Below, one piece after another: positions 1 through 10,459 of a stretch of 10,459 nucleotides of DNA. The stretch is taken from NCBI RefSeq assembly GCF_003334765.1, contig NZ_QOWT01000058.1; one strand, written 5' to 3'. Position 1 is the stretch's first letter. Each line of letters begins with the position of its first letter. The notes under the pieces are model-generated. The model was not told the origin of the DNA. It ran no database searches and was given only the letters and a program-made list of their open reading frames with translations. This DNA is from Escherichia coli (GTDB lineage: Bacteria > Pseudomonadota > Gammaproteobacteria > Enterobacterales > Enterobacteriaceae). The position numbers and the translations under genes were made by a program.

Positions 1-1016
1 ACCGAGAAAGACACTGAAGTTCAAAACACCGAAAGAGATAATTGAAAGGGGTGTTGCATTGACAGATTGAATCTACAACAGCGTATTTTGCACAGGAGTC
101 GCTGAAAAATACGCGTTAATCGAACAATGGCGACAACAATTTCCCATTGAAGCGATGTGTCAGGTATTTGGTGTATCCAGGAGCGGTTATTACAACTGGG
201 TACAGCATGAACCCTCAGACAGAAAACAAAGTGATGAGCGGCTAAAACTGGAGATTAAGGTGGCACATATCCGCACTCGCGAAACATATGGAACCCGGCG
301 GCTCCAGACGGAGCTGGCAGAGAATGGCATCATCGTTGGTCGTGACCGACTGGCACGTCTTCGTAAGGAGCTAAGGCTACGCTGTAAGCAGAAACGCAAG
401 TTCAGAGCGACTACGAACTCGAACCACAATCTGCCAGTTGCGCCAAATCTGCTGAACCAGACGTTCGCTCCTACAGCACCAAATCAGGTCTGGGTGGCGG
501 ACCTGACGTATGTTGCCACACAGGAGGGATGGTTGTACCTCGCTGGCATCAAAGATGTTTATACGTGCGAAATTGTCGGCTACGCCATGGGAGAGCGCAT
601 GACAAAAGAGCTGACAGGTAAAGCCCTGTTTATGGCGCTCAGGAGCCAGCGCCCACCTGCCGGGCTAATCCACCACTCTGATCGAGGTTCACAGTACTGC
701 GCATACGATTACCGGGTCATACAGGAGCAGTTTGGTCTGAAAACATCAATGTCGCGTAAAGGTAACTGTTACGACAACGCTCCGATGGAAAGCTTCTGGG
801 GAACGCTGAAAAATGAGAGCCTGAGCCACTATCGTTTTAATAACCGGGATGAAGCCATCTCAGTAATACGGGAATACATTGAGATTTTCTACAATCGTCA
901 GCGTCGTCACTCTCGTCTGGGGAATATCTCCCCGGCAGCCTTCAGGGAAAAATATCATCAGATGGCTGCTTAAAAAAAGAACAAATGGTAGTGTCCGCTA
1001 TTGCCAGTACACCTCA
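1..1016 (+). mobile_element. IS3-family insertion sequence (possibly IS600-like), 3' ~1 kb; left end lies outside the window
   Basis: OrfB frame is open from 71 and contains the 272-aa ORF 155..973. An OrfA-like C-terminal tail (QIESTTAYFAQESLKNTR, 63..119) sits in the frame that is -1-shifted relative to OrfB, the usual IS3-family arrangement. The proposed right end CCAGTACACCTCA (1004..1016) ends in CA; its reverse complement TGAGGTGTACTGGCAATAGCGGACAC resembles IS3-type terminal repeats as I recall them. The right boundary is an estimate. Confidence 0.7.
155..973 (+). CDS. IS3-family transposase OrfB (DDE integrase-core domain)
   Basis: 272-aa ORF with typical IS3 OrfB features: N-terminal VSRSGYY motif, WLYLA...D, HSDRGSQY and CYDNAPMESFWGTLK motifs. 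In IS3 elements this frame is normally expressed as an OrfAB fusion by -1 frameshifting; the frame is open upstream to 71. The specific IS name is from memory only. Confidence 0.9.
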   Translation: MCQVFGVSRSGYYNWVQHEPSDRKQSDERLKLEIKVAHIRTRETYGTRRLQTELAENGIIVGRDRLARLRKELRLRCKQKRKFRATTNSNHNLPVAPNLLNQTFAPTAPNQVWVADLTYVATQEGWLYLAGIKDVYTCEIVGYAMGERMTKELTGKALFMALRSQRPPAGLIHHSDRGSQYCAYDYRVIQEQFGLKTSMSRKGNCYDNAPMESFWGTLKNESLSHYRFNNRDEAISVIREYIEIFYNRQRRHSRLGNISPAAFREKYHQMAA

Positions 1017-1447
1017 CGCTTCCAGTCTTCGCGGTCGTTGTCGATAACTTCTTTTTTTGCCCAGCGATGGATGCTGCCGTCAATGTTTCCGGCATCCACA
1101 TCACTAGGCCAGAGAGCGTAGGCCAGTTCGTCATCCAGTGTTTTCCATGTCTGCTTGTATTCGCGATGAATGGCAGCAATGACCGGGCTGATTTTTCCTG
1201 TTGAATTTTCAGTGTACTGTTGATTGGCTCTGGCGCGGGCGAGATCAACAACAGACGTGTATTTTCCGGTTTCCTTGCGTTCACCTTCGCGACGTTTTTT
1301 CCAGATGCGCATCTCTGCCTGAATTTCGGGCCATTTAGCACCAGGAATACATTTATGCTTAACCCACCCAATGGCGTGCAACTTAAGCTCCGGATACGGG
1401 TTATTCCCCTCTGAACAGGCGCGTAAGGACTGGCAAAACGCCCGCAA
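998..1447 (-). CDS. hypothetical protein (phage-like), 3' end runs into the IS3-family element
   Basis: 149-codon ORF with protein-like composition, but the first codon is TTG and the first ATG is 46 codons in. The last 5 codons plus stop (998..1016) lie inside the proposed IS terminal sequence, so the native C-terminus may have been replaced by the insertion. A second minus-strand frame (970..1464) has low-complexity translation and is considered spurious. Confidence 0.3.
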   Translation of the reverse strand: MRAFCQSLRACSEGNNPYPELKLHAIGWVKHKCIPGAKWPEIQAEMRIWKKRREGERKETGKYTSVVDLARARANQQYTENSTGKISPVIAAIHREYKQTWKTLDDELAYALWPSDVDAGNIDGSIHRWAKKEVIDNDREDWKREVYWQ

Positions 1448-1466
1448 AAAACTCTCGAGGGCAAAG

Positions 1467-1637
1467 GTGAAGAAACCTGCTGTGGTTGATCCGGACCTTA
1501 TCTGGTCATCACCTGACGGAGAAATACGTCGCTACGACAGTCGCCTAAACATAATCTGTCGCGAGTGCCGGAAGAGCGAAGTTATGCAGCGCATACTGGC
1601 TTTCTATCAGGGTAATTTTCAGGACGTGGCGCAGTGA
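1467..1637 (+). CDS. small hypothetical ORF, translationally coupled (GTGA overlap) to the downstream methyltransferase-like gene
   Basis: The track ORF starts at 1371, but that would overlap the divergent minus-strand ORF. GTG at 1467 is preceded by GAGGG (1457..1461). Its stop TGA (1635..1637) overlaps the GTG start at 1634 of the next ORF. No recognised domain. Confidence 0.25.
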   Translation: MKKPAVVDPDLIWSSPDGEIRRYDSRLNIICRECRKSEVMQRILAFYQGNFQDVAQ

Positions 1638-2080
1638 GTGCACCGGCAACCATTCTTGATATGTGCTGTGGCAGCCGCATGTTCTGGTTCGATAAGTCTG
1701 ACGAACGGGCGATATTCAGCGATATCAGAAAAGAAGGATACACATTACGCAATGGGAGACGCTTGATTATCAGCCCTGACATTATCGCAGATTTTCGTGC
1801 ATTATCATTTGCAGACGCATCTTTTTCGATGGTTGTATTAGACCCTCCGCATCTTGAGAGTGTTGGTGATAACGCCTGGATGGGAAAGAAATATGGACGG
1901 CTGAATAAAGATGCCTGGCGTGATGATTCGCGACAGAGATTTAAAGAAGCCTTTCGGGTGTTGAGGCCGCACGGCGTTCTGATTTTTTAATGGAATGAAA
2001 CGCAAATACCGGTAAGCCAGATTCTGGCACTGACAGACAGAAAACCTGTTATCTGTCAACGAACAGGGAAAAAACGATAA
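1634..2080 (+). pseudogene. SAM-dependent (DNA) methyltransferase-like gene interrupted by an in-frame TAA at 1988..1990
   Basis: Translation contains a motif-I-like DMCCGSR and a motif-IV-like VVLDPPH (DPPY/NPPY class), then LRPHGVLIF before the TAA. The same frame stays open for 29 more codons (WNETQIPVSQILALTDRKPVICQRTGKKR) to TAA 2078..2080. Assignment to the N6-adenine/N4-cytosine methyltransferase class is by motif only. Confidence 0.45.
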
Positions 2081-2252
2081 AACCCACTGGATTATTTTTA
2101 TGAAAGAGGCATCCAGTGAGTAGATTCGTAAGGCTACAGATACGTATATCTGAATAATTAAATTCAGTTCTGTAAATAAAATTTAATCCTTAACCGGATG
2201 GATTTCTGCACCCTCAGAACATCAGGAGGCCGCCCGAAAGGGCGGTAGTGAA

Positions 2253-2363
2253 ATGCGAAAGTTCAAAATTATTATTGAAACGGGAATAGCTGGTGGAGAT
2301 TTTGAGGATGTATTCGAAGTGGACGATGACGCAACACCTGAGGAAATTCATGACGGAGCATAA
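2253..2363 (+). CDS. small acidic hypothetical ORF (36 aa)
   Basis: ATG 2253 to TAA 2361..2363, translation MRKFKIIIETGIAGGDFEDVFEVDDDATPEEIHDGA. AGGAGG lies at 2224..2229, separated from the ATG by a GAAA-capped hairpin (2229..2246). Below the ORF-track length cutoff and unverified. Confidence 0.2.
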   Translation: MRKFKIIIETGIAGGDFEDVFEVDDDATPEEIHDGA

Positions 2364-2412
2364 GAAATTTTCTTTAACTACTGCAATTACTCATACCACG
2401 AAATAAAAGACG

Positions 2413-2604
2413 ATGAGGAAGAACAAAGTGGCTGATTTTTGTTCAGCTAAATATAACATCAGTTTTGAAGAGCGGGATGAACTATTAATGGACTATGGTG
2501 AGTTACGCGGTGGAAGTGCTGCTGATGTCGAATCCTAGCGTGATGACTATGAAGCGGGAAAAACTCCGGTCGAAGCATATTGTGATGAGTGGGGCGATGA
2601 ATGA
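2413..2604 (+). pseudogene. short ORF interrupted by in-frame TAG (2536..2538); probable decayed prophage gene
   Basis: ATG 2413, 41 codons, TAG, then 21 more open codons to TGA 2602..2604. The alternative frame is also open, which fits decayed coding DNA. Confidence 0.2.
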
Positions 2605-2888
2605 GCGAGATTAATTATCAGGAAGGGCATGAAACGGCGGGGCAAGCAAAACCAGTGGCATGGCGATATCGCTACGTGAAAAAAGGCGTTACGGACTTTC
2701 AGGGGAAGTAGTGGTCTGGTGACTGGAAATATGTACCGAAAAAAGAGGATTGTAACGACAGGCCGAACTATCAAATTCAGGCCTTATTCACTGCCTCACC
2801 AGTCCCAGTTACATCAGAAGAACTGGTTAAAGCTGTGCACTTTTATGAACAACTAAAACGCGAAAATCCACCAACATCCGGCAACTAG
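2601..2888 (+). pseudogene. short ORF interrupted by in-frame TAG (2709..2711); probable decayed prophage gene
   Basis: ATG 2601 overlaps the upstream stop (ATGA). 36 codons, TAG, then 58 further open codons (WSGDWKYVPKKEDCNDRPNYQIQALFTASPVPVTSEELVKAVHFYEQLKRENPPTSGN) to TAG 2886..2888. Confidence 0.25.
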
Positions 2889-3142
2889 ATTAATGGATTA
2901 ACTATGTCGGTTAAACGACCAGCCAACTGAAAAAGCGGAAACCTGATTACAGGTTGCCAGATAAGGCAATGAGCTACCTGGCGCGGAACGGACTGATAAG
3001 TATGGGGAATGTTTTACGATGAACCTTTAGACTAAAGAGTTTGTAACGCTATGTAAGTGATTTTTTCTGGTTTAGATATTTATATGTCCGGCCAAATTGA
3101 GGTGTGTTTAAATGTAATTGCACATTGATTGTAGGAGGAATA

Positions 3143-3322
3143 ATGAAAAACGCATTGCAGTTTTTGTTTGTTGCGTTCTGGTTGTTCGCATCATGTATGC
3201 CCATCATCTTCACAGCAAGGTATATGGAAAAAGTTGATGTTTTGATATTAATATTTGGATATATAAATGCCCTTTTTTTAGGGGTGTTCATGGCGGTCAT
3301 GTGCATTGAATACTGGCGGTAA
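3143..3322 (+). CDS. small predicted membrane protein (59 aa, two hydrophobic helices) in an AT-rich islet
   Basis: Strong Shine-Dalgarno AGGAGG (3133..3138) 4 nt before ATG 3143. Translation MKNALQFLFVAFWLFASCMPIIFTARYMEKVDVLILIFGYINALFLGVFMAVMCIEYWR has two hydrophobic segments. Local GC content is low. The track lists a longer 3104 start with no ribosome-binding site. Confidence 0.4.
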   Translation: MKNALQFLFVAFWLFASCMPIIFTARYMEKVDVLILIFGYINALFLGVFMAVMCIEYWR

Positions 3323-3508
3323 ATACAGCGAACTCCATTGGTTTAGTTGGATATTTACTGTGCTGGACAAAAACGGTTTGCGGGGAAATCTTAGTTAAGT
3401 AGAATGACTGCGGGTGCTTGAGGCTATCTGCCTCGGGCATGGACACCAACGGCAGATAGAGAAAAGCCCCAGTTAACATTACGCGTCCTGCAAGACGCTT
3501 AACATTAA

Positions 3509-3590
3509 TCTGAGGCCAATTTCATGCTAGACACATGTAGGTTAGCCTCTTACGTGCCGAAAGGCACGGAGAAGCAGGCTATTGTTAACA
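3509..3590 (+). other. degenerate relE-3'end/hok-leader-like segment (paralogous remnant of the hokD translation-initiation region), no intact toxin ORF
   Basis: 3568..3582 GGAGAAGCAGGCTAT is identical to the hokD ribosome-binding site and start region at 6857..6871. The upstream hairpin CGTGCC-GAAA-GGCACG (3553..3568) parallels CACC-GAA-GGTG (6824..6834) with compensatory changes. 3509..3537 weakly resembles 6794..6818. The start position reads ATT and only 6 codons follow before TAA. Confidence 0.4.
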
Positions 3591-3627
3591 CCAAGCTGTA
3601 ATGTCCCCTTTGAACCATTCTAAAATG

Positions 3628-3654
3628 TCCCCAGACAATTCTCTGGGGGATTTT
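3628..3654 (+). other. stem-loop CCCCAGA-caattc-TCTGGGG plus T-run directly upstream of the transposase start
   Basis: 7-bp perfect stem followed by GATTTTTC, ending 2 nt before ATG 3657. It is terminator-like; it may insulate the transposase gene from read-in transcription or be part of the IS end. Confidence 0.4.
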
Positions 3655-3656
3655 TC

Positions 3657-4970
3657 ATGATCAAAGAGACTGTTACGATGAGTCATAAGGAACTCCACCG
3701 ACTTCAGATTATTCAGGAACAAGCTGCGGCACGCATTGGCATTTCTATTCGGCAGGTTAAACGTCTGGTGCAACGGTATAGAAATGAAGGGCCTTCTGGT
3801 CTGGTTTCCCACCGACGTGGAAAGCGTCCTAATAATTCCTTTTCTACTGAATTCAGAGCAACAGTAATTTCACTCCTCAAAGGCCGTTACGCTGATTTTG
3901 GACCTACGTTTGCGTGCGAAAAATTGCGCGAGATACACGGTTTATCTTTATCCGTTGAAACTCTCAGAAAGTGGATGATAGAAGAGGGGTTATGGCGTGA
4001 ACGCCGTCGTAAAATTGCCCGTATATATCAACGCCGCATGCGACGACCATCTTACGGTGAACTGATCCAGATTGATGGCTCACCTCATGACTGGTTTGAA
4101 AATCGAGGCCCCAGATGTACACTGATCGTTTTCATTGATGATGCCACCAGTGCGTTGATGGCGTTGCGTTTTGTGCCTGCTGAAACAACCCGGGCTTACA
4201 TGGAAACCCTCCGGGGTTACCTTAATGATCATGGCGTACCGCTCGCTCTCTACTCTGATAGACACAGTATATTCAGGGTAAATAACCCAGAGCGGGAAGG
4301 TGAGCTGACCCAGTTCACTCGTGCGATAAAGACACTGGGCATCGAGCCAATCCATGCCAACAGCCCGCAGGCAAAAGGGCGGGTAGAGCGCGCCAATCAG
4401 ACACTACAGGACAGGCTGGTCAAAGAAATGCGGCTTCAGAATATCAGTGATATTGAAACAGCAAATGCATGGTTGCCGACCTTTATTGAAGCCTATAACA
4501 ACCGGTTCGCTACGTCGCCTCGTACTACTGATAATGCTCATCTTGATGTGCACCATTCTGAAGAGGAACTGGGTTATATCTTCAGCCTACAGGCGAAGCG
4601 CGTTCTGTCTAAAAATCTCACTTTCCAGTACAAAAGCAGTGCGTTTCAGGTACGCAGTGAGGGCCGGGGATATCGACTTAGGCATTCGGTTGTTACTGTA
4701 TGCGAGAACTTTGACGGTGAAATTAACGTTCTGTATGACGGGAAAGCGCTGGGCTGGGAAAAGTATGTTGATGGCCCGGAGCCTATACCACTGGATGATG
4801 AAAAGAGTGTCCATGAACGAGTGGATAATGCCCGTATTGATTTACGCTCAAAATACTATGTTAAACCTAAAGCTGACCATCCCTGGCTTACGCGCCGAAC
4901 GCAAAGTCATCAGCAAGTTAAGCCCCCGAAGTTACCTAAAAAGAAGCCTGATCCCGATAAAAAAGATTGA
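3657..4970 (+). CDS. DDE transposase with N-terminal helix-turn-helix and integrase-core domain (ISNCY/IS1202-group or IS481-like)
   Basis: 437-aa ORF. The N-terminus (RIGISIRQVKRLVQRYRNEG) looks like a helix-turn-helix. Candidate catalytic residues are D in IQIDGSPHDW, D in ALYSDRHSIF and E in KGRVERANQTL. The basic lysine/proline-rich C-terminus is typical of transposases. GGGGGA precedes the ATG by 7 nt. Family assignment is from memory. Confidence 0.85.
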   Translation: MIKETVTMSHKELHRLQIIQEQAAARIGISIRQVKRLVQRYRNEGPSGLVSHRRGKRPNNSFSTEFRATVISLLKGRYADFGPTFACEKLREIHGLSLSVETLRKWMIEEGLWRERRRKIARIYQRRMRRPSYGELIQIDGSPHDWFENRGPRCTLIVFIDDATSALMALRFVPAETTRAYMETLRGYLNDHGVPLALYSDRHSIFRVNNPEREGELTQFTRAIKTLGIEPIHANSPQAKGRVERANQTLQDRLVKEMRLQNISDIETANAWLPTFIEAYNNRFATSPRTTDNAHLDVHHSEEELGYIFSLQAKRVLSKNLTFQYKSSAFQVRSEGRGYRLRHSVVTVCENFDGEINVLYDGKALGWEKYVDGPEPIPLDDEKSVHERVDNARIDLRSKYYVKPKADHPWLTRRTQSHQQVKPPKLPKKKPDPDKKD

Positions 4971-5366
4971 AACCAAGATCGATTCGGTTGAGTGCATATC
5001 CATTCATAGGGTAGATTCTTAAGTCGCGTTTCTGGTGTTCATTTTCGGGTGGTTTGTTACTTGTTTTACCGGGGATATGCCAGAAACGCGCTGAGTCAGT
5101 CTGGGCGGTGCGCGTAATGAGGCGTTATGGTAAATAGCCTATGCTAATGTCCGCTAAGAGCAAGAAGCGGAAGTTGGCAGTTTTGTGGACTGTCCCCACA
5201 AAAGTGACTACAGAAATAGTTGCAATTCATAATTGATCATGGGTTGTCAGTTAAACTCGTGGCGATTTAAATAGACTAATTGGGAGTGCGTCCATTACTT
5301 ATATCTTGTAATGTTAACTATCAGAAATGATACAAAGATAATATGTCTTTAAAGAAAAGGCTGATG

Positions 5367-5392
5367 GCGAAAAGTGGCCCGATGAGGGCCAC
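5367..5392 (-). terminator. rho-independent terminator of flxA
   Basis: Hairpin GTGGCCC-gatga-GGGCCAC (5374..5392). On the minus strand it is followed by TTTTCGCC, 14 nt downstream of the flxA stop. Confidence 0.5.
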
Positions 5393-5406
5393 AATACGGC
5401 TGTCAC

Positions 5407-5739
5407 TTAGACGTAAATATCAATGGTGCCAGCGGTATTTGTATCGTCTTTTTTCTCTTCTTTTTTATCAGGCTGAACTGTCGCGTCTTCATTCTTTTTC
5501 TCTGCCTGCTGCCTTAACAACTGCTCCAGTTGAGCCCAGAGGCTTTCAATTTGCTTCTGTACCAATGCAGCCATTTCTTTTTTCTGCTGTGTCGTCATCC
5601 CCTCTTCCGATGAGATTTTCCCAAGCTTTTCAGTCAGCACCTGAATTTGTCTTGTGATTTTGGCTATTTCTGATGTTCCTTCCGGGGCGGAGTTGTTTGA
5701 AATAACGGTTGAGGTATTTCCCTGAATTGTGACAGACAT
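5407..5739 (-). CDS. flxA: FlxA (FliA-regulated prophage protein)
   Basis: 110-aa ORF (MSVTIQGNTSTVISNNSAPEG...QQKKEMAALVQKQIESLWAQLEQLL...) recognised from memory as E. coli FlxA. GGAG lies 7 nt upstream of the ATG on the minus strand, and a sigma-28 promoter lies just upstream. Confidence 0.85.
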   Translation of the reverse strand: MSVTIQGNTSTVISNNSAPEGTSEIAKITRQIQVLTEKLGKISSEEGMTTQQKKEMAALVQKQIESLWAQLEQLLRQQAEKKNEDATVQPDKKEEKKDDTNTAGTIDIYV

Positions 5740-5762
5740 AGATTTCTCCTTTTAAAAAAGCA

Positions 5763-5789
5763 CTATCGGCATGCACAAAAAAATCTTTA
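5763..5789 (-). promoter_or_regulatory. sigma-28 (FliA) promoter for flxA
   Basis: Minus strand reads TAAAGATT-N11-GCCGATAG against the class-3 flagellar consensus TAAAGTTT-N11-GCCGATAA (14/16). The -10 element ends about 24 nt upstream of the flxA ATG. Confidence 0.6.
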
Positions 5790-5941
5790 ATCGTATTTCT
5801 TGTGTCATTAATTGTTTGATGTTCAGATTGTTTTCCTCGCGGGCTGGCGCGCCTCAGAAAGTAAAGCTTGTTGACAGGGGTAAACGTTCGGCAATAATTT
5901 TCTGCCGCATGCGGGTGTTGCATAAAACGTGTTACGTTCCT

Positions 5942-6247
5942 TTATCGACAGGTCAGGTCACCGCTCACCCGCCGACGAGAAAGCAACACTGACATGCTAA
6001 AGCAAAAAATAGATGAATAAGTTGAGTTGTGCATATGTAGCCTGACCGTCACAAAGTATATGGTGTCTGTACCAGTAAGATGATGGCCGGACTCTTTAAA
6101 AACGAGCTGACCTGCACAATACAGGATGGACTTAGCAATGGCTGCTCCTGGCACAAAGCGGACAGTGATCACCGTTCTTACGACTACTTTCTGACTTCCT
6201 TCGTGACTTGCCCTAAGCATGTTGTAGTGCGATACTTGTAATGACAT
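5942..6247 (-). CDS. ydfV: YdfV-like hypothetical ORF (doubtful coding status)
   Basis: 101-codon ORF at the position where K-12 annotates ydfV, as I recall. Its ATG (6245..6247) lies inside the relBE operator repeats and the translation is S/T/C-rich and poorly protein-like, so it is kept at low confidence. Confidence 0.4.
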   Translation of the reverse strand: MSLQVSHYNMLRASHEGSQKVVVRTVITVRFVPGAAIAKSILYCAGQLVFKESGHHLTGTDTIYFVTVRLHMHNSTYSSIFCFSMSVLLSRRRVSGDLTCR

Positions 6248-6259
6248 TTGTAATTACAA
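6208..6259 (+). promoter_or_regulatory. relBE promoter and operator (relO)
   Basis: -35 TTGCCC (6208..6213), 17-nt spacer, -10 GATACT (6231..6236). TTGTAAT repeats at 6236..6242 and 6248..6254, and the palindrome TTGTAATTACAA (6248..6259), lie between the promoter and the relB ATG at 6272. This is the classic RelB-RelE autoregulation site. Confidence 0.65.
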
Positions 6260-6271
6260 GAGGTGTAAGAC

Positions 6272-6511
6272 ATGGGTAGCATTAACCTGCGTATTGACGA
6301 TGAACTTAAAGCGCGTTCTTACGCCGCGCTTGAAAAAATGGGTGTAACTCCTTCTGAAGCGCTTCGTCTCATGCTCGAGTATATCGCTGACAATGAACGC
6401 TTGCCGTTCAAACAGACACTCCTGAGTGATGAAGATGCTGAACTTGTGGAGATAGTGAAAGAACGGCTTCGTAATCCTAAGCCAGTACGTGTGACGCTGG
6501 ATGAACTCTGA
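6272..6511 (+). CDS. relB: RelB antitoxin
   Basis: 79-aa ORF MGSINLRIDDELKARSYAALEKMGVTPSEALRLMLEYIADNERLPFKQTLLSDEDAELVEIVKERLRNPKPVRVTLDEL, near-identical to E. coli RelB from memory. Its stop overlaps the relE start (TGATG). Confidence 0.93.
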   Translation: MGSINLRIDDELKARSYAALEKMGVTPSEALRLMLEYIADNERLPFKQTLLSDEDAELVEIVKERLRNPKPVRVTLDEL

Positions 6512-6798
6512 TGGCGTATTTTCTGGATTTTGACGAGCGGGCACTAAAGGAATGGCGAAAGCTGGGCTCGACGGTACGTGAACAGTTGAAAAAGAAGCTG
6601 GTTGAAGTACTTGAGTCACCCCGGATTGAAGCAAACAAGCTCCGTGGTATGCCTGATTGTTACAAGATTAAGCTCCGGTCTTCAGGCTATCGCCTTGTAT
6701 ACCAGGTTATAGACGAGAAAGTTGTCGTTTTCGTGATTTCTGTTGGGAAAAGAGAACGCTCGGAAGTATATAGCGAGGCGGTCAAACGCATTCTCTGA
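6511..6798 (+). CDS. relE: RelE mRNA interferase toxin
   Basis: 95-aa ORF MAYFLDFDERALKEWRKLGSTVREQLKKKLVEVLESPRIEANKLRGMPDCYKIKLRSSGYRLVYQVIDEKVVVFVISVGKRERSEVYSEAVKRIL, recognised as RelE. It is translationally coupled to relB. Confidence 0.93.
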   Translation: MAYFLDFDERALKEWRKLGSTVREQLKKKLVEVLESPRIEANKLRGMPDCYKIKLRSSGYRLVYQVIDEKVVVFVISVGKRERSEVYSEAVKRIL

Positions 6799-6869
6799 AC
6801 CAAAGCATGACATCTCTGTTTCGCACCGAAGGTGACACTTCTGCTTTGCGTTGACAGGAGAAGCAGGCT

Positions 6870-7025
6870 ATGAAGCAGCAAAAGGCGATGTTAATCGCCC
6901 TGATCGTCATCTGTTTAACCGTCATAGTGACGGCACTGGTAACGAGGAAAGACCTCTGCGAGGTACGAATCCGAACCGGCCAGACGGAGGTCGCTGTCTT
7001 CACAGCTTACGAACCTGAGGAGTAA
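6870..7025 (+). CDS. hokD: HokD (RelF) Hok-family type I membrane toxin
   Basis: 51-aa ORF MKQQKAMLIALIVICLTVIVTALVTRKDLCEVRIRTGQTEVAVFTAYEPEE, not in the ORF track because it is short. It has a ribosome-binding site GGAG at 6857..6860. The Hok family signature is a transmembrane helix followed by LCE. Confidence 0.9.
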   Translation: MKQQKAMLIALIVICLTVIVTALVTRKDLCEVRIRTGQTEVAVFTAYEPEE

Positions 7026-7083
7026 GAGACCCGGCGGGGGAGAAATCCCTCGCCACCTCTGATGTGGCAGGCATCCTCAACGC

Positions 7084-7115
7084 ACCCGCACTTAACCCGC
7101 TTCGGCGGGTTTTTG
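7084..7115 (+). terminator. rho-independent terminator after the relB-relE-hokD operon
   Basis: Hairpin CCCGC-ttcg-GCGGG (7086..7099) followed by TTTTTGTTTTTATTTT (7100..7115). Confidence 0.6.
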
Positions 7116-7241
7116 TTTTTATTTTCAACGCGTTTGAAGTTCTGGACGGTGCCGGAATAGAATCAAAAATACTTAAGTAGCGCGCAGGGATAAGAGGGAT
7201 GGTCCCTTAAAGGGGAGAGCTAATTATCCGGAAGGATTCTG

Positions 7242-7493
7242 ATGATGAACATCGAAGAACTGCGTAAAATTTTTTGTGAAGATGGCCTCTATGCTGTGTG
7301 CGTTGAAAATGGAAATCTTGTTAGTCATTACCGCATTATGTGTTTGCGAAAGAATGGGGCTGCGTTAATTAATTTTGTGGATGCTCGGGTCACGGACGGA
7401 TTTATCTTGCGCGAAGGTGAGTTTGTCACTTCATTACAGGCATTGAAAGAGATCGGAATAAAAGCTGGCTTTTCTGCTTTTTCAGGAGAATAA
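7242..7493 (+). CDS. rem: Rem-like prophage protein
   Basis: 83-aa ORF MMNIEELRKIFCEDGLYAVCVENGNLVSHYRIMCLRKNGAALINFVDARVTDGFILREGEF..., matching Qin prophage Rem by memory and by its position between hokD and ydfU. Confidence 0.8.
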   Translation: MMNIEELRKIFCEDGLYAVCVENGNLVSHYRIMCLRKNGAALINFVDARVTDGFILREGEFVTSLQALKEIGIKAGFSAFSGE

Positions 7494-7559
7494 ACTCATC
7501 TACAATCTTGCGCGGGGCTGAACTCCCGCTGAGTAACACCGTGCCACCGGAGAAAACCG

Positions 7560-7838
7560 ATGGCACGCAACGCAAAATATTACAATTCTGATAATTCGCC
7601 CGTTCTTGCCTGCACGCACGGGCGGTATTCTCACGCATTCAAGTCTGAATGGTTCCAGCACCCTCCATGCACTGCAGAACAGGCCGAATGGCTGATTCAT
7701 TCTTACCGCAGGCGCGGGTTCGAGGTTAAGAAAGCTCTCAGTCTCGACTATCGGCACTGGATAATCTCTGTCAGGCTGCCTTATTCCGAACGCCCACCAC
7801 GTGCGTCCCGCACTTTCCAGCAACGGATCTGGAGGTAA
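7560..7838 (+). CDS. hypothetical prophage protein (92 aa), tightly coupled to ydfU
   Basis: GGAG sits 7 nt upstream of the ATG. Its stop at 7836..7838 is followed 1 nt later by the ydfU GTG start, whose ribosome-binding site GGAGG (7831..7835) lies inside this ORF. No recognised domain. Confidence 0.45.
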   Translation: MARNAKYYNSDNSPVLACTHGRYSHAFKSEWFQHPPCTAEQAEWLIHSYRRRGFEVKKALSLDYRHWIISVRLPYSERPPRASRTFQQRIWR

Positions 7839-7839
7839 C

Positions 7840-8889
7840 GTGCGGGTATTACTTAGACCTGTTCTGGTGCCTGAGCTTGGGCTGGTGGTCCTTAAGCCGG
7901 GCCGTGAATCCATACAGATATTTCATAATCCTCGAGTGCTGGTGGAACCGGAACCAAAAAGCATGCGTAATCTGCCATCCGGAGTCGTTCCTGCCGTTCG
8001 CCAGCCGCTGGCGGAAGACAAAACATTGCTGCCGTTTTTTAGTAACGAACGGGTGATTCGTGCTGCTGGCGGCGTTGGCGCATTGTCCGACTGGCTATTA
8101 CGTCATGTTACATCCTGCCAGTGGCCTAATGGCGATTACCATCACACTGAAACAGTCATTCACCGTTATGGTACCGGCGCAATGGTGTTGTGCTGGCACT
8201 GCGACAACCAACTGCGTGACCAGACATCGGAATCACTGGAGCTGCTTGCTCAACAAAATCTGACAGCATGGGTGATTGACGTCATCCGTCACGCAATAAG
8301 CGGTACGCAGGAGCGGGAATTATCTTTGGCTGAATTATCCTGGTGGGCGGTCTGCAATCAGGTGGTGGATGCACTACCTGAGGCTGTATCGCGTCGTTCG
8401 CTGGGATTACCAGCGGAAAAAATCTGCTCGGTGTACCGCGAAAGCGACATCGTACCGGGAGAGCAGACCGCCACCAGCATATTGAAACAACGCACAAAAA
8501 ATCTTGCACCGTTGCCTTACGCCCACCAGCAACAAAAATCACCACAGGAAAAGACGGTGGTAAGCATCACCGTTGATCCAGAGTCTCCGGAATCTTTCAT
8601 GAAGCTGCCTAAACGTCGCCGCTGGGTTAAGGAGAAATACACACGTTGGGTTAAGACACAGCCGTGTGCTTGCTGCGGTATGCCAGCCGACGATCCGCAT
8701 CATCTGATTGGTCACGGGCAGGGCGGAATGGGAACAAAAGCACATGATCTCTTTGTGTTGCCTTTGTGCAGAAAGCATCACAACGAGCTGCATACGGATA
8801 CAGTGGCATTTGAAGATAAGTATGGCTCCCAACTGGAGCTGATATTTCGTTTTATCGATCGCGCGCTGGCAATTGGCGTACTGGCGTAA
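7840..8889 (+). CDS. ydfU: YdfU-like DUF968 protein (HNH-like C-terminal motif)
   Basis: The track ORF 7801..8889 is trimmed to GTG 7840, which is preceded by GGAGG, giving 349 aa. The C-terminus CACCGMPADDPHHLIGHGQGGMGTKAHDLFVLPLCRKHHNELH has a Cys/His pattern like HNH/zinc-binding nucleases. Identity is from memory. Confidence 0.8.
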   Translation: MRVLLRPVLVPELGLVVLKPGRESIQIFHNPRVLVEPEPKSMRNLPSGVVPAVRQPLAEDKTLLPFFSNERVIRAAGGVGALSDWLLRHVTSCQWPNGDYHHTETVIHRYGTGAMVLCWHCDNQLRDQTSESLELLAQQNLTAWVIDVIRHAISGTQERELSLAELSWWAVCNQVVDALPEAVSRRSLGLPAEKICSVYRESDIVPGEQTATSILKQRTKNLAPLPYAHQQQKSPQEKTVVSITVDPESPESFMKLPKRRRWVKEKYTRWVKTQPCACCGMPADDPHHLIGHGQGGMGTKAHDLFVLPLCRKHHNELHTDTVAFEDKYGSQLELIFRFIDRALAIGVLA

Positions 8890-8902
8890 GTGGAGAACGA
8901 GC

Positions 8903-9655
8903 ATGAACCTTGAAGCCTTACCAAAATATTACTCCCCAAAATCTCCAAAATTGAGCGATGACGCTCCAGCGACAGGCACCGGTTGTTTAACAATTACGGA
9001 TGTAATGGCAGCGCAGGGGATGGTGCAGTCGAAAGCACCACTTGGGTTGGCCTTATTTCTGGCAAAAGTTGGTGTTCAGGACCCTCAGTTTGCGATTGAA
9101 GGCCTGCTAAATTACGCGATGGCACTGGATAACCCGACATTGAACAAATTGAGTGAAGAAATCCGGTTACAGATTATTCCTTACCTCGTGAGTTTTGCCT
9201 TTGCTGATTACTCCAGGTCTGCGGCAAGTAAGGCTCGCTGTGAGCATTGTTCAGGTACGGGATTTTATAATGTATTGCGCGAAGTGGTGAAACACTACAG
9301 ACGCGGGGAATCTGTAATCAAGGAAGAATGGGTGAAGGAACTATGTCAGCATTGCCATGGTAAGGGCGAAGCCAGCACAGCGTGCAGAGGGTGTAAGGGT
9401 AAAGGGATTGTTCTGGATGAAAAAAGAACCCGGTTTCATGGCGTACCGGTATATAAGATTTGTGGGCGTTGTAATGGAAACCGGTTTAGTCGTTTACCGA
9501 CCACGCTGGCACGACGTCATGTCCAGAAGCTGGTACCAGACCTGACCGATTATCAGTGGTATAAGGGGTATGCGGACGTCATTGGTAAACTGGTAACAAA
9601 GTGCTGGCAGGAAGAAGCATACGCGGAAGCGCAATTGAGGAAGGTGACGAGATAA
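8903..9655 (+). CDS. quuQ: Q-family late-gene antiterminator (QuuQ-like)
   Basis: 250 aa from ATG 8903, which has GGAG 6 nt upstream; the track ORF starts 10 codons earlier. Contains several CxxC pairs (CEHCSGTG, CQHCHGKG, CRGCKGKG, CGRCNGN) and is followed by a promoter-terminator pair arranged like lambdoid P_R'-tR'. Confidence 0.85.
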   Translation: MNLEALPKYYSPKSPKLSDDAPATGTGCLTITDVMAAQGMVQSKAPLGLALFLAKVGVQDPQFAIEGLLNYAMALDNPTLNKLSEEIRLQIIPYLVSFAFADYSRSAASKARCEHCSGTGFYNVLREVVKHYRRGESVIKEEWVKELCQHCHGKGEASTACRGCKGKGIVLDEKRTRFHGVPVYKICGRCNGNRFSRLPTTLARRHVQKLVPDLTDYQWYKGYADVIGKLVTKCWQEEAYAEAQLRKVTR

Positions 9656-9686
9656 ATGATTTTTGCTGAAGATGGCGACATGATGT

Positions 9687-9715
9687 TTGCATTTTTCAAA
9701 AAATATGGATAAAAT
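9687..9715 (+). promoter_or_regulatory. putative late promoter (P_R'-like sigma-70 promoter) downstream of quuQ
   Basis: -35 TTGCAT (9687..9692), 17-nt spacer, -10 TAAAAT (9710..9715), beginning 32 nt after the quuQ stop. Confidence 0.5.
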
Positions 9716-9760
9716 TTTTTCAACGATGGGCTTTGTATACCCGACGTTAAGAAAAAGTAG

Positions 9761-9790
9761 AAAACCCGCTGATGAGCGGGTTTTGTGCTT
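9761..9790 (+). terminator. rho-independent terminator (tR'-like, possibly bidirectional)
   Basis: Hairpin CCCGCT-gatg-AGCGGG (9765..9780) followed by TTTTGTGCTTT. An A-run precedes it, so it could also act on the minus strand. It lies about 50-60 nt downstream of the predicted start of the putative late promoter. Confidence 0.55.
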
Positions 9791-10076
9791 TAAATGGGGC
9801 AATGGTAATGTTGAATCTCATCCCGGGACTCATGTCTGTTAACTTATTATTTAGCTGGTGACTTGGTTATTTGCCTGATGTTTAAAATGTTTTCTTCCAG
9901 TACAATGTCCCTAAACACAATGAGTCTGCTTATTATATTATTAGCAGAGCTATTACGGCCAAAGTACAGCATAAGCTTTTAAAGCCAATCAACCAGTCAT
10001 CAAGACAGACGGGGTTATTCATAAAAACTCTCCATGTGTGATCCGATGGGGCCTGAAATTAAAGCTTTAATATAGC

Positions 10077-10289
10077 TCATGAAAGGTAAACATTGGCAGC
10101 TGAAGGGCCACGCAGACCATTTATCCGGCAAAATTCCACGCGTAATCCGGTGGTAATTTCTTCTGCATCGCGGAGATTGAGCGCTGAAACATGAAGCTGG
10201 ACATCGATACGACCATCGGATGGGGTGATAAGACCCTTGCCGCTTTTGCCGTCAAAGGTTTTGACAATTCCTGTCATTTTACGGGACAA
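10077..10289 (-). CDS. cspF: cold-shock-domain protein, CspF/CspH family
   Basis: 70-aa [73 protein letters not shown] with CspA-family motifs. It is convergent with quuQ. The first codon is TTG, with AAGGA 6 nt upstream. Confidence 0.8.
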
Positions 10290-10459
10290 AAAAATTCCTT
10301 AATACTGATAACTTGGCGCACTATACACACGTTCCTGAAGAAAGCTATAGTTTTTTGATGGGGTTGAAGATGGCTGGATGTCTAAGGAAGGTGCGAATAA
10401 GCGGGGAAATACTTCTCGGCTGACTCAGTCATTTCATTTCTTCATGTTTGAGCCGATTT

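Follow-up and report, generated by a model that had tools for sequence, protein, structure and literature searches.

A TTG start codon of cspF is shared by cspF and cspH genes across several enterobacterial genera

The window, by which we mean the whole analysed stretch of 10,459 nucleotides of Escherichia coli DNA, carries on its minus strand, at 10077..10289, an open reading frame of 70 amino acids plus a stop codon, as given by the ORF list and its translation. The encoded protein matches the NCBIfam profile NF012007, 'cold shock-like protein CspF', with 160.4 bits against a cutoff of 111, and the match runs over residues 1-70 of the 70-position profile, which places it in the CspF subfamily. 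The literal translation starts from TTG; if this codon initiates, the first residue is fMet and the protein opens with MSRKMTG. Positions 1-10385 are 100% identical to a Qin cryptic-prophage region present in many E. coli genomes. In the FORC 064 annotation, the matching region contains IS600 and ISNCY remnants, ydfW, flxA, ydfV, relBE and hokD, and further rem, ydfU, ydfT (antiterminator), a 29-aa ORF and cspF; the left part of the window, with its IS600 and ISNCY remnants, thus resembles FORC 064-type strains and differs from K-12. Against K-12 MG1655, nucleotide identity is 100% for 10040-10385, a stretch that spans the Shine-Dalgarno (SD) sequence, the TTG, the coding sequence and the downstream small ORF. 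RefSeq places K-12 cspF (b1558, WP_000087756.1, 213 nt) at 1597-1809 of the K-12 locus (L001), with a start that coincides exactly with the TTG of the window. The genomic context agrees: the K-12 and FORC 064 loci that are 100% identical at the DNA level are both annotated with WP_000087756.1, and ydfT and ydfU adjoin cspF, while the cspB side is lost to IS5 and the window end. Judged by these matches, the gene is the wild-type cspF of the Qin cryptic prophage, and the first-pass annotation, which had named it a cspF-like cold-shock paralog, was right on this point. The features considered below are as follows.

10077..10289, minus strand: cspF coding sequence, 70 aa plus stop, with a TTG start (ORF list, NCBIfam CspF, K-12 identity)
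10275..10277, minus strand: internal ATG, codon 5, at +12, a possible secondary start (invariant; TetRP signal; without an SD of its own)
10287..10289, minus strand: TTG (UUG) initiation codon, codon 1 (19/19 coding sequences, 56/56 viral or prophage copies, literature)
10296..10301, minus strand: Shine-Dalgarno sequence UAAGGA, 6 nt 5' of the TTG (sole anti-SD site in -30..+12; AGG core invariant)
10320..10325, minus strand: TATAGT, a -10-like box and probable -10 element of the cspF promoter (placed by alignment only; putative function)
10386..10459, no strand assigned: IS5 end, inserted after CTAA (10382-10385) (K-12 identity ends at 10385; matches IS5 end)

The last 74 bases of the window (GGAAGGTGCGAATAAG...) match the end of IS5 beside an annotated IS5 transposase that reads toward cspF. 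This end lies between cspF and cspB, at a distance of 96 bp from the cspF TTG on its upstream side, and the K-12 cspF locus differs from the window in that no IS5 end replaces the sequence from this point. Among 5,426 complete E. coli genomes, none had this junction. Since IS5 is known as an insertion element that can activate the genes next to it, the promoter activity of cspF or cspB could be altered here.

Two further observations concern other parts of the window. On the minus strand, 54 nt 3' of the cspF stop codon, a small hydrophobic ORF of 29 aa (9933-10022) corresponds to the RefSeq hypothetical protein WP_120795389.1 and has a GGAG-type SD of its own. At 3412-3583 on the plus strand lies the sole Rfam match of the window, to the sok antitoxin RNA (104 bits), which overlaps a plus-strand ORF of 25 aa (3524-3601, MLDTCRLASYVPKGTEKQAIVNTKL) and extends just upstream of it. 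The ORF, which we take to resemble the N-terminus of Mok, stops a short way ahead of the ISNCY transposase gene (3657-4970). The RefSeq record used has no annotation at this place, neither hok nor any other gene, the annotated hokD being separate (~6870-7025), and the interval 3412-3657 has the look of a hok/mok/sok locus that an IS has cut short.

Read 5' to 3' on the minus strand, the cspF initiation region is ...GTATTAAGGAATTTTT TTG TCC CGT AAA ATG ACA GGA ATT GTC..., with AAGGA at 10300-10296, the 6-nt spacer ATTTTT at 10295-10290 and the TTG at 10289-10287. A scan for duplexes with the anti-SD sequence from -30 to +12 returned a single SD-like site, UAAGGA at -12 to -7 (-6.1 kcal/mol), and found no SD for the internal ATG, for which every scanned window gave +0.6 kcal/mol or worse. 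The distance from the SD is 6 nt to the TTG versus 18 nt to the codon-5 ATG. The TTG has the layout of an SD-led UUG start, being in frame with the ORF and preceded by an SD within the range of 5-9 nt, and this layout is not due to chance, since orthologues of at least five genera repeat it to the base (see below). The coordinates and the scan bear out what the first-pass annotation had read from the letters without naming the strand, namely that AAGGA stands 6 nt from a TTG opening MSRKMTG and that the first ATG, four codons further in, is badly spaced from the SD. Local RNA folding gave a weak hairpin in which the UUG pairs with codons 6-7; its z-score of -1.0 was not significant and it was dropped, a covariation test being impossible with an initiation region of such invariant sequence.

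This layout raises a key question: is the TTG peculiar to the strain under study, or is it the ordinary state of the gene? The former had been proposed on first reading, as a start-codon variant through which this paralog would be expressed less than in other strains, and the general frequencies of start codons in E. coli speak for it, with AUG at 83%, GUG at 14% and UUG at 3% (Hecht et al., bioRxiv 10.1101/063800); the paralogs of cspF also begin with ATG. To compare alleles, a 63-nt stretch centred on the start was used as the query against 5,426 complete E. coli genomes, about a quarter of which (~1,370) carry cspF. The cspF start region was recovered at a coverage of at least 80% in 1,327 genomes and exactly in 1,234, so that the sequence of the window is shared not only with K-12 and its RefSeq TTG start but with more than 1,200 other genomes. 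Neither an ATG nor a GTG version of the stretch had a match of at least 99% among the 5,426 genomes, and with such queries every cspF match fell to 98.4%, that is, to one mismatch. In the CFT073 allele, the single differing base sits in the leader and the start codon is unchanged. For cspH, the corresponding region with TTG was present in 5,391 of the 5,426 genomes (exact in 4,893), and its ATG version had no full-length exact match there, the top-ranked rows reaching 98.4%. Five cspH-ATG records fell in the band of at least 99%; we read them as partial alignments rather than ATG alleles because they are not at the top of the ranking by coverage times identity. In prophage and viral contigs of IMG/VR, searched with a pattern that left the first base of the start codon free, TTG was found in 56 of 56 copies.

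No ATG or GTG allele has thus appeared in any surveyed set, whether E. coli, viral or, as described below, other genera, and a strain-specific change from ATG to TTG has a negligible probability. As far as these comparisons reach, the TTG of cspF is the reference state and not a mutation, a strain-specific variant is excluded, and in practice the codon should not be flagged as a mutation. The comparison with cspF and cspH alleles of other strains, which the first-pass annotation had itself suggested, returned TTG throughout E. coli, in cspH and in other genera, and with no ATG or GTG allele in ~1,370 genomes its start-codon variant has to be given up. Its expectation of lowered translation fares differently: it is plausible as a wild-type property of the whole clade and fails as a property of this strain.

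The UUG start is already known for both genes, from the reference annotation and from the literature. A study of 2025 (PMC11648934) states that cspF and cspH initiate at UUG and treats the codon accordingly in swapping it for AUG; our own literature search for cspF with 'TTG' returned irrelevant papers only. What the present survey adds is the fixation of UUG throughout the CspF/CspH clade, in a number of enterobacterial genera.

A scan of species-representative genomes yielded 18 loci of the cspF/cspH type and one CspA-type gene. The former come from Escherichia (E. coli, E. albertii, E. whittamii and other Escherichia), Citrobacter, Salmonella enterica diarizonae and arizonae, Klebsiella oxytoca and spallanzanii, Enterobacter and unnamed Enterobacteriaceae. 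At the homologous position, 17 of the 18 have TTG, and the CspA-type gene opens with ATG TCT AAT AAA ATG. The exception (L003, 389-598, in the Citrobacter MAG DXKH01000110.1) has CTG at codon 1 and carries the substitutions R3P, T11N and C54Y; either decay of a prophage copy or a sequence error of the MAG may account for it, and if the copy is functional, initiation would have to come from the internal ATG. Together with the cspF of the window and E. coli cspH, the 17 TTG loci form a set of 19 distinct coding sequences with pairwise nucleotide identities of 65-97%. TTG is present in all 19, a set in which invariance extends to no more than 2 of 17 four-fold sites and 5 of 69 third positions. 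When the 5' regions are aligned, three blocks stand out as conserved, namely the TATAGT box, the AGG of the SD core and the TTG, against a variable leader and a variable spacer between SD and start. Codons 2-3 differ between loci mostly by synonymous changes (TCC/TCT in 6 loci, CGT/CGA in 2), and the interval from TTG to ATG is free of indels at every aligned locus, although the leader upstream does contain them. Orthologues therefore commonly use TTG, across cspF and cspH of several genera, which the first-pass annotation had named, together with normal expression, as something that would tell against its variant.

The paralogs indicate which codon of the relatives this TTG corresponds to. 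In cspB and cspG, the divergent neighbours of cspF and cspH, the opening reads TAAGGAA-N7/8-ATG TCx AAT AAA ATG ACT GGT, and the cspF TTG is the homologue of their ATG because it occupies the same codon position in the aligned openings. CspF likewise aligns with E. coli CspA from residue 1 (MSRKMTG versus MSGKMTG). The CspA chain in the structure 1mjc starts at Ser2, and CspA-type proteins are therefore made from their first codon and not from Met5. The codon is thus both conserved in orthologues and homologous to the starts of paralogs, and the earlier remark that TTG stands where an ATG would be expected holds in this evolutionary sense. From the aligned sequences, UUG is taken as the ancestral state of the CspF/CspH clade in Enterobacteriaceae, the codon being AUG in CspA, CspB and CspG.

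Within the coding sequence, codons 4-9 of cspF (AAA ATG ACA GGA ATT GTC; window 10263-10280, minus strand) are near-invariant even at synonymous sites among the 19 distinct genes, and the sole two invariant four-fold sites of the cspF/cspH coding sequences fall here. We take it to lie where cspA-type mRNAs have their 'downstream box'. The conservation of codons 4-9 indicates an RNA-level constraint on the initiation region. Part of the conservation of TTG could likewise reflect such nucleotide-level constraint rather than start function, since codons 4-9 are also near-invariant at synonymous sites.

Another important question is which of the two codons, UUG or the AUG at +12, is used. The CspF N-terminus is annotated by homology and geometry, and the only published start-site mapping of cspF, by tetracycline-inhibited ribosome profiling (TetRP), is ambiguous between UUG and the +12 AUG. 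In that data set (Nakahigashi 2016, PMC4909307, Table S2, row 146), the +12 ATG of cspF is listed as a candidate new start of the class '4. multiple', with values over three replicates of 0 / 94.06 / 75.25 for the +12 ATG and 0 / 47.03 / 0 for the annotated TTG start; the ATG signal is thus the stronger in two of three replicates, the TTG has a signal in one of three, and the column for N'-peptides is empty for cspF. The values resemble simple fractions of 301 (75.25 = 301/4, 94.06 = 301 x 5/16, 47.03 = 301 x 5/32), and we therefore infer that they rest on very few reads. Moreover, cspH and cspF are identical in sequence from -2 to +41, and a footprint centred on +12 may therefore not reach the single spacer base that tells the two genes apart and so be assigned ambiguously. 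Taken as they stand, these data are experimental support for initiation at both codons; we weigh them lightly because of the few reads, the risk of cross-mapping from cspH and the lack of an SD at the ATG. Searches of the literature text for retapamulin or Onc112 start-site data gave no match for cspF or cspH.

If both codons initiated, UUG at codon 1 and AUG at codon 5, isoforms of 70 and 66 aa would be made, and the share of the AUG might be substantial. The TetRP signals at both positions and their 'multiple' class agree with such dual initiation, as does the invariance of the codon-5 AUG with AAAA before it, and the Citrobacter copy with CTG at codon 1 would depend largely on this AUG. However, the second site has no SD of its own, the nearest one being 18 nt away, and PMC4909307 gives no N-terminal peptide for cspF. 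The few reads and the cspH footprints, which may not be uniquely mappable, weaken the TetRP evidence; Met5 is also kept in CspA, CspB and CspG, which start at codon 1, so its conservation is no evidence for a start; and the Citrobacter copy has other unusual substitutions and may be decaying. We regard dual initiation as unlikely on balance, though worth keeping in mind. It is far less probable that the internal ATG is the sole start, yielding a protein of 66 aa, with TTG TCC CGT AAA as a leader conserved for RNA-level reasons. The third TetRP replicate, with signal at the ATG alone, and the nucleotide-level constraint on the initiation region beyond coding needs would fit this reading. Against it, the geometry of the SD fits the TTG; codons 1-4 are homologous to the translated MSGK/MSNK of CspA, CspB and CspG; the TTG-ATG interval keeps its length at loci whose upstream leaders do not; the changes in codons 2-3 are mostly of the synonymous kind; and the TTG itself has a TetRP signal in one replicate.

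We therefore favour, with a probability of roughly 0.7, the reading that cspF starts principally at UUG, directed by the SD, and that this codon is ancestral and fixed in the CspF/CspH clade. Under this reading, the 30S subunit would be placed by pairing of the anti-SD sequence with UAAGGA, and fMet-tRNA would read the UUG with a first-position mismatch to give MSRKMTG.... Canonical AUG, GUG and UUG starts work at 10-100% of the strength of AUG (Hecht et al., bioRxiv 10.1101/063800), and by this general range the output from the UUG would be lower than from an AUG by anything from no reduction to ~10-fold. The invariance of the UUG across genera, beside a spacer and synonymous sites that do vary, suggests purifying selection that keeps the start weak. 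The sequence, its match to K-12, its conservation and the placing of the SD are observed; that UUG serves as the main start in the cell, and that selection acts on its weakness, we infer. A fixed UUG agrees with selection for weak initiation in divergent Csp paralogs that are induced by cold and urea. Both cold and urea induce cspF and cspH, which encode the most divergent Csps, in which several RNA-binding residues are missing (PMC9947658). Overexpressed CspF and CspH, unlike other Csps, barely changed the baxL-bax and gdx mRNAs (PMC11648934).

A more far-reaching and rather doubtful possibility is that the invariant UUG and the invariant SD-less AUG four codons on together form a selected, clade-wide regulatory device that would hold basal translation low and perhaps, when cold shock or urea stress sets in, shift start use or output. 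If this were true, the isoforms of 70 and 66 aa would differ in the N-terminal SRK segment, including Lys4, a residue that has been implicated in the target specificity of CspA-type proteins and is conserved in CspB, CspF and CspH (PMC11648934).

Upstream of the initiation region, 31-36 nt before the TTG, the TATAGT box is preserved at 16 of the 17 aligned cspF/cspH loci in the midst of a variable leader. A scan for consensus sigma-70 promoters called none for cspF on the minus strand; the box went uncalled because its -35 is a poor match. If TATAGT is the -10 element, the cspF leader is only ~25-30 nt long. The cspA-type genes have thermosensing leaders of roughly 160 nt, than which the putative cspF leader is much shorter, and the Rfam scan of the window found no cspA-type 5'UTR thermosensor near cspF.

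Among the known systems close to cspF is cspH. It has the same SD, the same opening TTG TCC CGT AAA ATG ACA GGA ATT GTC and a TATAGT box, and RefSeq annotates it from TTG too. It differs in the spacer (ATTTGT versus ATTTTT), in the leader and in the later codons, and also in its setting, since cspH is chromosomal, lies beside cspG and, by its presence in the genomes surveyed above, belongs to the core genome, whereas cspF is prophage-borne. The cspA, cspB, cspG and cspI genes share with cspF the N-terminus M-S-x-K-M-T-G and an SD of the TAAGGAA type at a similar distance but have ATG at codon 1, and CspA-type proteins keep the aromatic residues of RNP1 and RNP2 (KGFGFI, VFVHF), which CspF and CspH lack (KGKGLI, VQLHV). 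Outside this family, infC and pcnB have regulatory AUU starts, conserved non-AUG codons that limit translation (see also the introduction of Hecht et al.). We know of no autoregulatory circuit for cspF or cspH. The UUG of cspF resembles the AUU of infC and pcnB in being a conserved non-AUG start and differs from it in belonging to the canonical class of AUG, GUG and UUG.
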